This document shows, piece by piece, positions 5,609 to 8,997 of a stretch of 64,000 nt of DNA. Position 1 is the stretch's first letter, and the number at the start of each line of letters is the position of its first letter. The stretch covers positions 406-64,405 of the forward strand of contig CAKNPW010000007.1 of assembly GCA_930990555.1 (NCBI GenBank). Reading direction: 5' to 3'. This stretch comes from an uncultured Clostridium sp. Its GTDB lineage: Bacteria > Bacillota > Clostridia > TANB77 > CAG-508. The notes below the pieces were generated by a model. The model ran no database searches. It saw only the letters and a program-made list of their open reading frames with translations, and was not told the origin of the DNA. A program made the position numbers and the translations under genes.

Positions 5609-8026
5609 ATGAAAGTATCATTAAATTTAATTAGAAAATATGTTGATTTACCTGAAGGTTTAACTGATGAACAAATTGCCTATGATATGACACTTCGAAC
5701 AGTAGAAGTAGAAGAAGTCGAAAATACTGCCAAAAAATTTCATGACATAGTTGTAGGAGAAATTTTAGAAATAAAAGAACATCCAAATGCTGATAAATTA
5801 AGAATATGTATGGTAGATATTGGAGAAGAAGAACCTGTACAAATCGTATGTGGTGGTTCTAACCTTTATGTTGGAGAACATGTAGTAGTATCAAAACCAG
5901 GAGCAGAAGTTGTTTGGCATGGTCAAGGAGAACCAGTTAAAATAACAAAAACAAAAATGAGAGGAGAAAGCTCTTACGGAATGATTTGTGCTTCAACAGA
6001 AGTATATTTAAGTGATTTCTTCCCAAACGAAGGTGAAGAAGAAATAGTTGATTTAAAAGATTTTGATTGTAAGCCAGGAGATAGTGTTGCAGATTTATTT
6101 GGAATGAATGATACAGTATTAGAAATAGATAATAAATCTTTATCTAATAGACCAGATTTATGGGGCCATTATGGAATTGCAAGAGAATTATCAGCTATAT
6201 ATGATGCACCATTAAAAGAATTACCAAAATTCGAATTACCTAAAGTTCCAGAATACAGTGTAGAAATAAAAGATACAACTAAATGCAATAGATATGTAGC
6301 TGTAGAAATAGATGGTATATATGAAAAACAATCTCCAATGTGGATGCAATCATTATTATCAAAAGTAGGTCAAAGACCAATAAATGCTATTGTAGATATA
6401 ACAAATTATGTAATGATGGCAGTAGGTCAACCACTTCATGCTTTTGACAAAACACATGTAAGTGGAGAAAAAATAATAGTAAGAAATGCCAAAGAAAATG
6501 AAAAATTATTATTATTAGATAATAACTTTATCGAGCTTTCAACAGATGATTTAGTAATATGCGATGAAAGTGATGCAATGGCATTAGCAGGAATTAAAGG
6601 TGGTAAAAAAGATTCTATTCTACCAGATACAAAAGGAGTTGTATTAGAAGTAGCAAACTTCTCTGCAGATACAGTTAGACAAACAGATAAAAAATTTGCA
6701 GAAAAAACAGAAGCTTCAATGAGATTTGAAAAAGGTGTTGATACACAAAGAGTAGATGAAGGATTAAATTTAGCATTAAGATTAATTAAAGAAATATTCC
6801 CAGATAGCAAAATAATTAAATATGCAGATGTTTATCCAAACGAAACTAAAAAGAATGAAATAAAAGTAAGTGAAGAATTCTTGGATACAAGATTAGGAAA
6901 GAAGATACCACAAGAGAAGATTGAACAAATTTTAACAGCTCTTGGATATGAAATATCTTTAAATAACGGAGAATATGATGTAATAGTTCCAACATGGAGA
7001 TCAACAGGTGACGTTACAATTAAAGATGATGTAATGGGAGATATTGCAAGAATACTAAGCTTTGATAGTTTTGAAGCAAAACCAATTACTATAACTTTTG
7101 AACATTCTGTAAAACAAAATGATGTTTTACTTGAAAGAAGAATTAAAGAATATTTAGCATATAGATGCGGATTTTATGAAATTTTCACATATCCATGGAT
7201 TGAAGAAAAATATATTAAAGCAGCAGGAATAGATATGGAAAAATCTTTAAAATTAGCAACTCCACCAGCACCAGATTTAGCATATTTAAGAAGTTCTTTA
7301 ATACCAGGAATGTTAGAAGCAGTTGCTAAAAACTTAAGATACTATGATGAATTTAGATTATTTGATTGTGAAGAAGTTTATGAAAAAGGTGATTATAGAC
7401 CATCTTCAGAAGATGAAATTTTACCAATTCAAAAGAATTATTTAACTGGATGTATAGTTGGAAAAGATGCTAAAGAAATATTCTATGAAGCAAAAGGTGT
7501 AATTGAAAATATGGCTGAGTACTGCCATATGGAAGAACTTAAATTAGAAAAAATGGAGAAGCCATATTGGGCAGATGTTAATGCATACTTAAATGTAGTT
7601 AAAGGTAATGAAGTAATTGGAACATTAGGATTAGTTTCAGTTAAAGTAATGGCAGATACTAAAATAAAAAGAACTAATGTAGCAATGTTTGAAATAAATA
7701 CAGAAAAATTTGTTCCATATGCTTCAAGAACTAATGAATATGAAAGATTACCAGAACTACCATTAGTAGAAAAAGATTTGTCAATTATAGTTGATGAGGA
7801 AATTACATGGAAACAAATTGAAGAAAACATCAAAGCAAAAGTTAAAGAAATTGAATTTGTAGATGAGTATAGAGGAAATCAAATTCCAGAAGGAAAAAAA
7901 TCAATTACATTAAAAGTAAAAATACTTAATGAAGGAACAACTATGACATCAGAACAAATAAATGAGAAAATGAATAGCATATTAAAAACACTAGACAAGA
8001 GATGTGGAGCTAAACTAAGAGATTAA
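5609..8026 (+). CDS. pheT: Phenylalanine--tRNA ligase beta subunit
   Basis: ATG at 5609 (MKVSLNLIRKYV, the typical PheT N-terminus) 8 nt after gaaagga. tRNA-binding, B3/4, B5 and FDX-ACB order. The TTG at 5603 is less likely. Confidence 0.97.
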   Translation: MKVSLNLIRKYVDLPEGLTDEQIAYDMTLRTVEVEEVENTAKKFHDIVVGEILEIKEHPNADKLRICMVDIGEEEPVQIVCGGSNLYVGEHVVVSKPGAEVVWHGQGEPVKITKTKMRGESSYGMICASTEVYLSDFFPNEGEEEIVDLKDFDCKPGDSVADLFGMNDTVLEIDNKSLSNRPDLWGHYGIARELSAIYDAPLKELPKFELPKVPEYSVEIKDTTKCNRYVAVEIDGIYEKQSPMWMQSLLSKVGQRPINAIVDITNYVMMAVGQPLHAFDKTHVSGEKIIVRNAKENEKLLLLDNNFIELSTDDLVICDESDAMALAGIKGGKKDSILPDTKGVVLEVANFSADTVRQTDKKFAEKTEASMRFEKGVDTQRVDEGLNLALRLIKEIFPDSKIIKYADVYPNETKKNEIKVSEEFLDTRLGKKIPQEKIEQILTALGYEISLNNGEYDVIVPTWRSTGDVTIKDDVMGDIARILSFDSFEAKPITITFEHSVKQNDVLLERRIKEYLAYRCGFYEIFTYPWIEEKYIKAAGIDMEKSLKLATPPAPDLAYLRSSLIPGMLEAVAKNLRYYDEFRLFDCEEVYEKGDYRPSSEDEILPIQKNYLTGCIVGKDAKEIFYEAKGVIENMAEYCHMEELKLEKMEKPYWADVNAYLNVVKGNEVIGTLGLVSVKVMADTKIKRTNVAMFEINTEKFVPYASRTNEYERLPELPLVEKDLSIIVDEEITWKQIEENIKAKVKEIEFVDEYRGNQIPEGKKSITLKVKILNEGTTMTSEQINEKMNSILKTLDKRCGAKLRD

Positions 8027-8067
8027 TGAACTTTGAACGAAAGATTATGAACTTTGAATGAAAGATT
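8026..8067 (+). repeat. Two tandem 21-nt direct repeats abutting the -35 of the type III TA promoter
   Basis: atgaactttgaacgaaagatt (8026-8046) and atgaactttgaatgaaagatt (8047-8067), 20/21 identical. Confidence 0.8.
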
Positions 8068-8072
8068 AATTA

Positions 8073-8102
8073 TTGACAAAGAAGCATATTTTATGCTATT
8101 AT
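8073..8102 (+). promoter_or_regulatory. Extended -10 sigma-A promoter driving the antitoxin repeats and toxin
   Basis: TTGACA (8073-8078), 18-nt spacer, TGcTATTAT (8094-8102). Confidence 0.65.
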
Positions 8103-8138
8103 GAATATACTAATTAAGAATGCTTCTATTCTTAATAT

Positions 8139-8290
8139 AAATGCATTTGTCGCTACCTCTTTGGCGACTAATAAATGAGAGAGTGAATAAATGTGTTTGT
8201 CGCTACCTCTTTAAGCGACTAATAAATGAGAGAGTGAATAAATGTGTTTGTCGCTACCTTTTTAAGCGACTAACAAATTAAAGAGTGAAT
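8139..8290 (+). ncRNA. Type III antitoxin RNA: three tandem 50/51/51-nt repeats (ToxI/CptI-like)
   Basis: Units at 8139-8188, 8189-8239 and 8240-8290. Consensus aaatgtgtttGTCGCtacctctttaaGCGACtaataaatgagagagtgaat. Contiguous with no spacers. Lies between the promoter and terminator, immediately 5' of a ToxN-like ORF. Confidence 0.75.
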
Positions 8291-8297
8291 AAATTAT

Positions 8298-8333
8298 GGG
8301 GGCTTATCAGAAATGATAAGCCCTTTATTTTTT
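8298..8333 (+). terminator. Intrinsic terminator between the antitoxin repeats and the toxin gene
   Basis: gggcttatc-agaaat-gataagccc followed by tttattttttt. This position matches the attenuating terminator of type III TA loci. Confidence 0.85.
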
Positions 8334-8349
8334 AAAGGGAGATATTAGT

Positions 8350-8843
8350 ATGCAAATTAAAATTGGTTGTTTTTATTTTATAAAAGATACTTTTTTGAAA
8401 TTATAGATGATCCAAAATTGATGCAAAATAAAGAAAATGGAAATAAAAGACCATGTTATTATTGTTTTAAAAGTAAAAAATATGATAACATTATCTGGTT
8501 TATACCTATTAGCACGAAAATAGATAAATATAAAAAAGTTTATAATAATAAAATAGAAAAACAATTAAAGTTAGGAAAAAAGATTTCGGTTGATACTTTG
8601 GTTTTCGGAAAAGTTGCAAATACATTTAGTGCCTTTTTAATTCAGAATATGTTTCCTGTAACAAAACAATATGTAGAAAATCAATATCTAAAAAATAAAG
8701 TGCCTATAAGAGTGTCAAACAGATTACAGACAGAAATAATATATAAAGCTAATAAAGTTTTAAATTTATATAAACACGGAATGAAAAATATTATTTTTCC
8801 TAATATTGATAGAATTCTAGAACAACTATTAAAAGATATATGA
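8350..8843 (+). CDS. Type III TA toxin, ToxN/AbiQ/CptN-like endoribonuclease (N-terminus apparently out of frame at a T6 tract)
   Basis: The long ORF 8367-8843 (TTG) has RPCYYCF..IIWFIPISTKIDKY and AFLIQNMFPV motifs resembling the ToxN/AbiQ-type fold. The strong RBS agggag plus ATG at 8350 encodes MQIKIGCFYFIKDTF in the other frame. One extra T in the T6 run (8391-8396) would fuse them into MQIKIGCFYFIKDTFFEIIDDPKLMQNK. Confidence 0.7.
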
Positions 8844-8997
8844 AAATATTTTAAACTTATAATTAATATCTAATTTATGCCTCAGATAAAATGCTTACTA
8901 TATGTGAAACTTACGTGAAATATTAGCCATAGTTGTTGATTTTAGCAAAGAAAAATAATAAACTATATTTCATAAGTTTACAAAATGGAGGAATAAA

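Follow-up and report, generated by a model that had tools for sequence, protein, structure and literature searches.

The CptIN family of type III toxin–antitoxin (TA) systems was surveyed by Blower et al. 2012 (PMC3401426), who also noted truncated cptN genes, and the CptIN system of Eubacterium rectale was described by Rao et al. 2015 (PMC4627078; PDB 4RMO). In E. rectale, a tandem-repeat RNA is made from a constitutive promoter, and a terminator after the array allows only a fraction of transcripts to run on into the toxin gene, so that antitoxin RNA is in excess over toxin. Single units are released from the repeat precursor by the CptN endoribonuclease, which cleaves 3' of an adenosine; each CptI unit is an H-type pseudoknot, and two of them clamp two toxin monomers in an inactive 2:2 ring. 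In the CptI type the stems are duplexes with an A-minor twist and the complexes are 2:2, whereas ToxI units are 36 nt long and form triplex pseudoknots in 3:3 triangular complexes (PMC4627078, PMC5086642). Growth inhibition, neutralisation by cognate repeats and repeat processing have been reported only for the E. rectale, R. torques and C. catus systems, and the CptIN systems tested so far did not defend E. coli against phage (PMC3401426, PMC4627078).

The window analysed here (the whole stretch of DNA, 64,000 nt) comes from an uncultured gut Clostridia bacterium of low GC (27%). It carries a locus that we interpret, with good confidence, as a horizontally acquired, self-contained CptIN-family type III TA cassette, the toxin gene of which is frameshifted and which is probably a decaying module. 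The CptIN family and its RNA plan are known; what is new is a further, decayed member, in which one identifiable deletion of 1 nt has become fixed in the population.

Layout and setting of the cassette

The cassette (nt 8068–8870) is chromosomal, with pheT on one side and a DUF5685 gene on the other, and consists of an extended −10 promoter, a leader hairpin, 3.1 tandem units of 50/51/51 nt, an intrinsic terminator, a ribosome-binding site (RBS) and the toxin gene. An earlier, sequence-only reading of this DNA had proposed a type III TA locus with the canonical layout of promoter, RNA repeat array, terminator and toxin; that layout is present, and all of the elements described were recovered in place or within a few bases. 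The features are as follows.

nt 8020–8068, + strand: 21-nt tandem repeat, 2.3 copies, at the pheT/cassette junction (Tandem Repeats Finder, TRF)
nt 8073–8102, + strand: sigma-70-type promoter with extended −10; 11/12 positions matched, best site in the region
nt 8113–8136, + strand: 5' leader hairpin, AUUAAGAAUG-CUUC-UAUUCUUAAU, contained in both the MFE and centroid folds
nt 8139–8188, + strand: CptI-like repeat 1, 50 nt (TRF, fold, family covariation)
nt 8189–8239, + strand: CptI-like repeat 2, 51 nt (TRF, fold, family covariation)
nt 8240–8290, + strand: CptI-like repeat 3, 51 nt (TRF, fold)
nt 8298–8333, + strand: intrinsic terminator between array and toxin; 12-bp stem-loop (nt 8298–8325), then a T-run
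nt 8334–8342, + strand: RBS, AAAGGGAGA, read from the sequence, 7 nt 5' of the ATG at nt 8350
nt 8350–8406, + strand: 5' fragment of cptN in the ATG frame, 18 codons (MQIKIGCFYFIKDTFLKL), stop TAG at nt 8404–8406
nt 8389–8396, + strand: frameshift site, AC-TTTTTT vs NNA TTT TTT in intact homologues
nt 8397–8843, + strand: rest of cptN in the other frame, carrying the catalytic core; no further stop

The promoter consists of TTGACA (nt 8073–8078), an 18-nt spacer and TATTAT (nt 8097–8102) with a TG at nt 8094–8095, as had been read before, and is kept in homologous loci. Transcription is predicted, from spacing, to start near nt 8109. The leader hairpin lies just 3' of this predicted start of the antitoxin precursor, which it may stabilise; at the same site homologues carry UUAAGAAC...GUUUUUAA, in which U-A is replaced by C-G through changes in both arms. 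The previously proposed terminator was also found by a terminator scan, which gave two sites vs 0.3 in shuffles, and homologues have a hairpin and T-run at this position. The RBS expected upstream of the toxin start is likewise in place, and corresponds to AAAGGAG in homologues.

The order promoter–leader–repeats–terminator–toxin is found again 5' of toxin homologues in a large number of unrelated genomic contexts, which argues that the arrangement is more than chance. Homologues of 164–165 aa (about 80% identity) are preceded by the same cassette in unrelated contexts, and near-identical cassettes occur in varied contexts among related gut Clostridia, some of them beside transposases and a Mob gene. 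Repeat arrays are present at homologous loci, and most of the CptN relatives sampled have arrays of 45–63-nt units.

Homology to other cassettes begins at nt 8068–8072. The 21-nt repeats, with the unit AGATTA(A)TGAACTTTGAA(C/T)GAA, lie outside this conserved cassette and, in their first copy, overlap the stop codon of pheT (nt 8024–8026). A 22-nt pattern built on the unit occurs within the window only at nt 8026–8047 and 8047–8068 (chance expectation 0), and the repeat is absent from every other copy of the cassette, including L057, which carries the same allele. The suggestion that these repeats could be an operator was rejected on account of their position and their absence from all other copies.

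Toxin family and antitoxin RNA

Membership of CptIN is defined by toxin sequence, and the tests of it were run on the frame-corrected sequence. The NCBIfam CptIN equivalog (NF047359) matched with 169.2 bits vs a cutoff of 90 (E = 5e-50), covering profile positions 1–150 of 150, and a phmmer search against the PDB returned CptN (4RMO_A; E = 1.7e-27, residues 7–160). Consistent with this, the sole significant Foldseek match of an AlphaFold model (pLDDT 74) was 4RMO_A (E = 5e-9, TM 0.69/0.72), with CcdB and MazF next. Sequence and predicted structure place the toxin as CptN. Of the earlier description as ToxN/AbiQ/CptN-like, only the last part holds: the match to Pfam PF13958 (ToxN_toxin) was below threshold (16.3 bits vs a cutoff of 25, E = 0.011), for which reason assignment to ToxN/AbiQ was rejected, and PADLOC gave no match. 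In corrected numbering, the catalytic positions S51-S52-R53, S85 and Y104 of the E. rectale enzyme, whose roles have been described (PMC4627078), correspond to S55-T56-K57, S94 and Y113, and S55, S94 and Y113 are invariant in the toxin alignment. Where the described CptN active site has a Ser-Ser/Thr-Arg triad, S-T-K is read here, with Lys for Arg, and D81 of E. rectale aligns with Asn; these substitutions appear conservative and are shared by the whole clade, intact members included.

TRF reported 3.1 copies of a 51-nt unit at nt 8137–8294 (92% matches, score 260); the unit boundaries given here were set in the AAAUG register, and a partial fourth unit of 4 nt (AAAU) follows at nt 8291–8294. 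The three contiguous repeats (50/51/51 nt, nt 8139–8290) and their internal GTCGC...GCGAC were noticed before and are confirmed: the units share 43–47/51 positions pairwise, and each contains GTCGCT...(A/G)GCGAC. The unit plan is a stem S1 (GUCGCU/AGCGAC), a loop L1 of 1–2 nt, a stem S2 (CUCUUU/AGAGAG) and a 9-nt L2 (UAAUAAAUG). In repeat 1, S1 is nt 8149–8154/8163–8168, S2 is nt 8157–8162/8178–8183 and L2 (UAAUAAAUG) is nt 8169–8177; in repeat 2 these are nt 8199–8204/8214–8219, 8207–8212/8229–8234 and, again UAAUAAAUG, 8220–8228. In repeat 3, S1 is nt 8250–8255/8265–8270, L2 is UAACAAAU, and S2 pairs CUUUUU(A) at nt 8258–8264 with (U)AAAGAG at nt 8279–8285, so that the changes relative to repeat 2 preserve pairing.

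Covariation in homologous loci, a check suggested with the sequence-only reading, was assessed for 39 distinct units, taken from about 40 loci and placed in an unfitted MAFFT alignment, and supports the pseudoknot. Its pairings were formed in 87.4% of alignment cells, vs 45–54% with slid partners, and 9 of the 12 pairs showed changes on both sides. The covariation score was 0.373 vs ≤0.18 for slid partners, and none of 500 shuffles equalled the observed pairing or covariation values. At single loci, the two copies of L039 have unrelated 7-bp S2 helices, each perfectly paired, and those of L045 differ by a U-A to C-G change. Each unit can form a CptI-type H-type pseudoknot, a fold that the covariation across the family supports.

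The E. rectale reference unit was recovered from L049, and its numbering agrees with that of the crystal-structure paper except at position 28. The unit described here shares with it the order of elements, the 9-nt L2 and the UAAAUG end of L2. The earlier proposal of a distinct repeat class, made by comparison with the 36-nt ToxI unit, does not hold, as the comparison should be with the 45-nt CptI from E. rectale, whose pseudoknot plan and 9-nt L2 the unit shares. A longer single-stranded linker between the pseudoknots accounts for units of 50–52 nt rather than 45 nt, and the ancestral processing site would lie in this linker, at A^AAUG or alternatively GA^AU. No Rfam 15 family was detected at its gathering score (cmscan), either in the region or in the whole window.

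The frameshift in cptN

The ORF of about 160 aa that had been proposed does not exist as a single reading frame, as the ATG frame stops at nt 8404–8406. The downstream frame is open from nt 8367 to a TGA stop at nt 8841–8843, and a protein of 164 aa results only when one base is added at the T-run (nt 8391–8396). At the site of the shift the intact homologue L015 reads ACA TTT TTC, and the lesion is a deletion of 1 nt at codons 14–16. Describing the toxin as 'frame-corrected', as was done earlier, understated a real disruption of the gene. The 5' fragment encodes the conserved N-terminal β-strand (residues 3–10 in the AlphaFold model, where it is part of the core sheet), and F8, Y9, K12, F15 and F16 are invariant in the family. 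Seven invariant residues fall within the first 24, and F15 and F16 are at the deletion site itself. Since the frameshift cuts this strand off from the catalytic core, an active toxin is most probably no longer made.

The identical lesion is present in L001–L003 and L055–L058. The first three, which represent 23 contigs (41 index blocks), have no mismatches to the window over nt 7990–8460; the contigs come from independent metagenomes that differ in study and assembler (ENA GLEN20, NODE_ and scaffold_ records). L055–L057 belong to a strain variant (P0054). No full-length allele of >83% identity was found among 619 matches, and no intact allele of the toxin sequence in a database of 5.8 billion proteins. 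The deletion is fixed in the population or species, and as it is both real and fixed, toxin and antitoxin probably do not work as a pair at this locus. Decayed toxins are common in the clade, and sister loci with truncated toxins include L030, L037, L038 and L040. Beyond the deletion, a further 147 codons read through without a stop, and promoter, array, terminator and RBS show no damage, which indicates either that inactivation is recent or that some expression has been kept. If the toxin is indeed inactive, the TA module would be one in decay, its antitoxin array still intact.

That the deletion is something other than simple decay, leaving either trace toxin made by −1 slippage or an array kept as a stand-alone immunity RNA, appears unlikely; if true, either would add a regulatory or ecological mode that is new to type III TA systems. 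According to the first, CptIN still works, with low-level full-length toxin produced by programmed −1 frameshifting or transcriptional slippage at U UUU UUG (nt 8390–8396), and the frameshift is a means of lowering toxin dosage. The ATG frame, ACU UUU UUG, does give an X XXY YYZ heptamer, U UUU UUG is formally −1 slippery, and a −1 slip would yield ...KDTFFEIIDD..., which is the family consensus and exactly the ancestral protein; the intact remainder of the ORF and regulatory elements, and an allele fixed in many samples, are also in keeping with it. Such a heptamer, however, arises automatically when one base beside TTTTTT is deleted, so no selective explanation is needed, and a T6 run is short for RNA-polymerase slippage. 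No downstream stimulatory hairpin or pseudoknot was found (MFE −3.5 kcal/mol, z = +1.1), nor was an SD-like element seen upstream of the site. The low-coverage contig L058 has an additional nonsense codon at position 4, 5' of the shift site, that would abolish expression by slippage, and the frequent toxin decay at sister loci also speaks against this explanation, which we regard as improbable.

Little weight can likewise be given to the second, in which the toxin is dead and the array is retained as an 'anti-addiction' or immunity RNA against incoming CptN of the same specificity on mobile cassettes. It would explain both the intact promoter and the extra repeat, as 3.1 copies stand beside a broken toxin vs 2.1 in intact relatives, a difference that simple decay does not predict. 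The leader hairpin and terminator are also intact, near-identical cassettes circulate among related gut Clostridia, and CptI RNAs show high specificity towards the toxin of their own system (PMC4627078). Against this, a recent frameshift accounts for the intactness equally well, within-species variation of the array is too low to show selection, and fluctuations in repeat number are known (PMC5086642). Loss of repeats is seen at other decayed loci, with one unit left in L030, L035, L043 and L048 and none in L034 and L037.

A sequencing or assembly error in the homopolymer, the toxin being intact in the real organism, is very unlikely: the lesion does lie beside a T6 run, a typical error site, but it recurs in at least 23 independent metagenome contigs as well as in the P0054 variant and L058, and the protein database holds no intact allele. 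The notion that the repeats are not an antitoxin (but a coding repeat, an operator array bound by a protein, or a leader or riboswitch acting in cis on the gene downstream) can practically be dismissed, since the ATG-initiated ORF through the array (nt 8141–8281, 46 aa) exists solely because 51 nt is 17 codons, has no RBS and is broken by homologous 50- and 52-nt units, the Moco-riboswitch match at nt 8243–8356 is weak (cmscan, 23.5 bits vs a gathering score of 36, with no Rfam family reaching its own), substitutions keep RNA pairing and not codons, and a CptN gene accompanies the array in every case.

Comparison with described type III systems

The preferred reading, a decaying CptIN cassette, is closest to the E. 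rectale system. Both are chromosomal, with promoter, tandem repeats, terminator and toxin in the same order, and the toxins are homologous (about 40% identity), match the same NCBIfam equivalog and share a fold. As in E. rectale CptI, the RNA unit has S1, a very short L1, an S2 strand within the S1 loop, a 9-nt A-rich L2 with U at the fourth position and a UAAAUG end, and a short tail ending in A after S2. The repeat number (3.1) falls inside the CptIN family range of 1.9–3.4. The two differ in unit length (50–52 nt here, 45 nt in E. rectale, and 40–48 nt in the 2012 survey), in the catalytic triad (S-T-K vs S-S-R), in the Asn aligned with D81, and in the frameshift of the toxin gene. Their stems have nothing in common in sequence, and cross-neutralisation would therefore not be expected. 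The locus also has a conserved 5' leader hairpin, a feature for which no description was found for CptIN.

With ToxIN of Pectobacterium atrosepticum and AbiQ-antiQ of Lactococcus, the type represented here shares a repeat RNA that the toxin, an endoRNase, itself processes, stoichiometry set by a terminator, a pseudoknotted antitoxin and a Kid/MazF-like toxin fold, while differing in a toxin that scores under the Pfam ToxN threshold. TenpIN of Photorhabdus luminescens has the same architecture, and the range of TenpI repeats (39–57 nt, mean 50.9) overlaps the 51-nt unit; the families are, however, defined by toxin sequence and the toxin is assigned to CptN, so that repeat length alone would wrongly suggest TenpI. 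The truncated cptN loci of Bryantella formatexigens, Lachnospiraceae 9_1_43BFAA and Pyramidobacter piscolens (Blower et al. 2012) similarly combine full antitoxin repeats and a terminator with a shortened or partial toxin gene. Unlike these, the locus described here has a single 1-nt deletion with the remaining coding sequence open, and this allele is fixed across many metagenomes.

Anatomy of the cassette and family of the toxin

The region after pheT is to be annotated as a CptIN-family type III toxin‒antitoxin cassette with three CptI repeats (the RNA antitoxin) and a toxin gene, cptN, that is most likely pseudogenised; gene callers at present report a 140-aa hypothetical protein for the toxin region.

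Features of the cassette and its left junction (window coordinates; TRF, Tandem Repeats Finder)
8020–8068, 2.3 copies of a 21-nt unit (TRF), overlapping the pheT stop codon
8026, end of the pheT ORF
8073–8102, promoter: TTGACA (8073–8078), 18-nt spacer, TATTAT (8097–8102), with TG at 8094–8095; 11 of 12 positions match, best site in the region
8113–8136, 5' leader hairpin of 10 bp
8139–8290, repeat array: three head-to-tail units of 50, 51 and 51 nt with a 4-nt partial unit after them (TRF: score 260 for 3.1 copies with 92% matches)
8298–8325, intrinsic terminator, followed by a T-run
8334–8342, RBS, AAAGGGAGA
8350, ATG start codon of the toxin
8404–8406, TAG closing the ATG frame of the toxin after 18 codons
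8367 to 8841–8843, long toxin frame (other than the ATG frame), open to its stop codon at 8841–8843

The coordinates given in the sequence-only reading are accurate, and its assignment of the locus to the type III systems was correct, as seen from the anatomy of the cassette and the family membership of the toxin; the locus belongs to CptIN, a family that has been described before and has a solved structure. The single long toxin ORF that it described was not found, as a continuous reading of 164 aa needs one base to be added to the early-terminating ATG frame, at the T-run 8391–8396.

The toxin is a CptN, and the family is already covered by an NCBI equivalog model. The translation obtained after adding the base (the corrected protein) matches this model (NF047359, 'type III toxin-antitoxin system CptIN family toxin') end to end with 169 bits (cutoff 90, E=5e-50), and also matches the crystallised CptN of Eubacterium rectale (CptN-Er, 4RMO_A; E=1.7e-27). 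Against the Pfam ToxN_toxin model the corrected protein scored 16.3 bits, under the cutoff of 25, and PADLOC returned no match for the toxin. A Foldseek search with an AlphaFold model of the corrected protein (mean pLDDT 74) gave 4RMO_A as the sole significant match (E=5e-9, TM 0.69/0.72), followed weakly by CcdB and MazF, as expected for the superfamily. In the alignment to CptN-Er, the active-site residues of which were described by Rao et al. 2015 (PMC4627078), S55-T56-K57 correspond to S51-S52-R53, S94 to S85 and Y113 to Y104, while an Asn stands opposite D81. Across 19 aligned sequences, drawn from both the window clade and the E. rectale clade, S55, S94 and Y113 do not vary.

No Rfam family at gathering score and no tRNA was found in the whole 64-kb window. 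Matches below the Rfam threshold at permissive E-values (GibS, Moco, snoRNAs) were rejected, as all of them stemmed from the terminator hairpin or from A/U-rich sequence. Firmicutes pheST operons often carry a T-box leader; none was called ahead of pheST here (upstream of pheS, 4557).

The repeat unit and its pseudoknot

The repeat is a CptI-type pseudoknot. The window unit consists of a 5' tail ending in GUUU, stem S1 (GUCGCU/AGCGAC), a loop L1 of one or two bases and stem S2 (CUCUUU/AGAGAG), with the 5' strand of S2 inside the S1 loop, followed by the 9-nt loop L2, UAAUAAAUG, and, after it, a short tail with A as its last base. A 45-nt CptI unit of E. rectale, AAGUUUACCACUGACCGAUAUGUGGUAUAUAAAUGGUCGGGUUGA, was recovered from a metagenome locus whose protein is 97% identical to 4RMO_A. 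Its numbering agrees with the residues given in the crystal-structure paper (A7–A10 and G22–G24 in S1, G13 in L1, L2 from A27 to G35 with the kink at U30, and G44-A45 at the 3' end), the sole exception being position 28, which is U in the recovered copy and A28 in the paper. The order of elements is the same in the two units, and their L2 loops are of equal length, have U at the fourth position and end in the same six bases, UAAAUG; the window unit is longer by about six bases, which lie in the single-stranded linker between pseudoknots. The sequence-only reading had proposed a distinct repeat class. The retention of the E. rectale plan, the 9-nt L2 with UAAAUG and the family-wide covariation described below speak against this.

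The stems differ by clade yet pair, for example CCGCUU/GAGCGG with GCCGA/UCGGU, CUCCGC/GCGGAG with ACCGGC/GCCGGU, and UCGCC/GGCGA with CCGUU/AACGG. Between repeats 2 and 3 of the window, both strands of S2 change (CUCUUU to CUUUUU, AGAGAG to AAAGAG) with every pair preserved. Pairs were counted on a MAFFT alignment of 39 distinct units that was not fitted to any structure: 87.4% of cells form standard pairs, compared with 45–54% when partners are slid by 1–3 columns, counts that are conservative for S2 because a longer L2 shifts the S2 partner strand of L045, L046 (two of the loci fetched from metagenome or MAG contigs) and some others. Both sides have changed in 9 of the 12 pairs and the covariation score is 0.373 (≤0.18 for slid partners); none of 500 shuffles reached the observed values. 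The alignment replaced a single-sequence dinucleotide shuffle test of S2 (P = 0.004–0.78 per unit), which had no power because the downstream segments are short and of low complexity, so that shuffling them recreates helices. The search for pseudoknots was limited to S1 stems with GC; an unrestricted search gave many chance 5+4-bp matches in AT-rich DNA. One locus with 48-nt units (L039) carries, in the two copies of one array, unrelated but perfectly complementary 7-bp S2 helices (UAAUCAA/UUGAUUA and AACUGGU/ACCAGUU), raising the question of whether one toxin accepts both.

Alignment to E. rectale places the processing site ambiguously, both A^AAUG, which fits most clades and is found in the linkers of nearly all of them, and GA^AU, which copies the G44-A45 context, being candidates; cleavage of the precursor would have occurred at one or the other.

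A 46-aa ATG ORF (8141–8281) spans the array for the sole reason that 51 nt makes exactly 17 codons. Relatives have units of 50, 51 and 52 nt, which rules the ORF out as a gene, and it probably gives rise to spurious gene calls.

The frameshift in cptN

In intact homologs, codons 13–17 of cptN read GAT-NNA-TTT-TTT-GAA. The closest homolog (L015) has GAT ACA TTT TTC GAA ATT where the window has GAT AC- TTT TTT GAA ATT, and therefore one base is missing in the window. The gene is broken and the lesion is real. Contigs with the 140-aa shortened call (database protein P0034) are present in 41 index blocks; 23 contigs, from different studies, were read, and the three loci retrieved show no difference from the window across 7990–8460. 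The same lesion is found in a strain variant (P0054, loci L055–L057) and in L058. Among the 619 relatives of the toxin in the protein database, the nearest full-length ones (164–165 aa) show 78–83% identity, and no full-length allele closer than 83% was detected. The frameshift separates the first 24 residues, which hold seven residues invariant in both clades (F8, Y9, K12, F15, F16, D21, L24) and the first core β-strand of the AlphaFold model (residues 3–10), from the remaining protein.

Degeneration of the cassette seems common in gut Clostridia MAGs. Toxins are truncated in the sister loci L030, L037, L038 and L040, a single repeat is left in L030, L035, L043 and L048, and the array is absent in L034 and L037. 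Truncated cptN genes with full repeat sets were also present in the survey of Blower et al. (PMC3401426). The recurrence of the lesion, the invariant residues that it cuts off, the decay of sister loci and these published truncations together indicate that the toxin has most likely been pseudogenised recently, while the antitoxin array is still intact; toxin function would then be lost at this locus.

Programmed frameshifting was considered as an alternative, since U UUU UUG in the ATG frame is formally a −1 slippery heptamer, the use of which would regenerate the ancestral protein exactly. However, the heptamer arises automatically when the base beside TTTTTT is deleted, and nothing structured lies 3' of it (MFE −3.5 kcal/mol, z = +1.1); we consider this explanation very unlikely. 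That the array is retained as an immunity RNA appears about as improbable. The fixed frameshift beside an intact array is a clear natural instance of how toxin‒antitoxin decay begins, and opens no new question.

Two side observations concern decayed loci. In some sister loci the array is gone and only the terminator and RBS remain. L058 (1–895), on a low-coverage contig (3.7x), has an additional nonsense codon 4 (AAA to TAA), lacks the original stop codon, giving a 150-aa call, and has a differing terminator hairpin upstream.

Cassette boundaries, relatives and known CptIN systems

Homology of the window to other loci extends from ~8068 to ~8870, that is, from the promoter to just past the stop codon, so that what is inherited as a unit is an 800-bp cassette. 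The 21-nt repeats end exactly at its left edge (8068). The only matches to a 22-nt search pattern in all 64 kb of the window are 8026–8047 and 8047–8068, where chance would give none, and the repeats are missing from all other copies of the cassette. They are thus a feature of this insertion junction, most simply explained by tandem duplication, and not a conserved operator; the operator suggested in the sequence-only reading is not supported. L057 (1–2865) is homologous from 8068 rightwards, with the same frameshifted toxin, a 3-copy array and the DUF5685 right flank, and its left flank is replaced exactly at 8068, without pheT and without the 21-nt repeats. Its leader and first repeat are of a type found in other species, which suggests recombination at the cassette boundary or within the first repeat, a chimeric assembly being a tenable alternative for so short a contig.

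In the loci of relatives, every element is kept, from the promoter through leader hairpin, array and terminator to the RBS. The hairpin occupies the same position, between promoter and first repeat, in L004, L009, L014 and others, and a U-A pair has changed to C-G on both sides between the window and homologs. It could shield the 5' end of the precursor or stabilise it; no description of it for CptIN loci was found in the literature examined. The window clade comprises cassettes that are nearly identical and number in the hundreds in MAGs of gut Clostridia. About 35 species-level MAGs from uncultured gut Clostridia contain relatives, which lie in unrelated neighbourhoods (beside an HD-domain gene, a short-chain dehydrogenase, transposases or a Mob relaxase). 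The arrays of intact relatives have 2.1 repeats (units of 50–52 nt) versus 3.1 in the window. Units are 46, 48, 49, 51 or 63 nt beside CptN relatives of 37–51% identity, and 45 nt in E. rectale-type loci.

Fifteen plasmids (PLSDB matches H1–H15) encode CptN relatives of 34–44% identity, all annotated as 'hypothetical protein', in Clostridium perfringens, Megamonas funiformis, Fusobacterium polymorphum, Oscillibacter, Planococcus, Virgibacillus and Peribacillus; in the 2012 survey, none of 33 cptIN loci was plasmid-borne (Blower et al., PMC3401426). Among 50,697 phage records searched, no CptN relative was found. In E. rectale-type loci (L049–L051) an RNA ligase gene (PF09414, positions 399–1328) lies directly upstream of cptIN, a suggestive neighbour for an endoribonuclease leaving 2',3'-cyclic phosphate ends.

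In the family, CptN cuts the repeat transcript after adenosine to give a 2',3'-cyclic phosphate end, one 45-nt unit by itself is enough for antitoxicity, a closed heterotetramer of two RNAs and two proteins hides the active sites, and antitoxins are specific to their cognate toxin; the E. rectale locus stabilised plasmids and gave no phage resistance in E. coli (PMC4627078, PMC3401426, PMC5086642). Set against this background, the mildly new elements are a clade with 50–52-nt CptI units, the conserved leader hairpin, a population-fixed frameshift paired with an expanded array, and covariation evidence for the CptI pseudoknot across the family. CptI units ranged from 40 to 48 nt in Blower et al. 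2012 (PMC3401426), a range that the window clade stretches slightly and L041 (63 nt, via a 23-nt L2) further. The same survey reported CptI sequences to be unalignable (PMC3401426). The window and E. rectale clades now form a CptI set with fully diverged stems and a constant pseudoknot plan and L2 motif, and, as the alignment and its covariation indicate, building a CptI covariance model would now be feasible.
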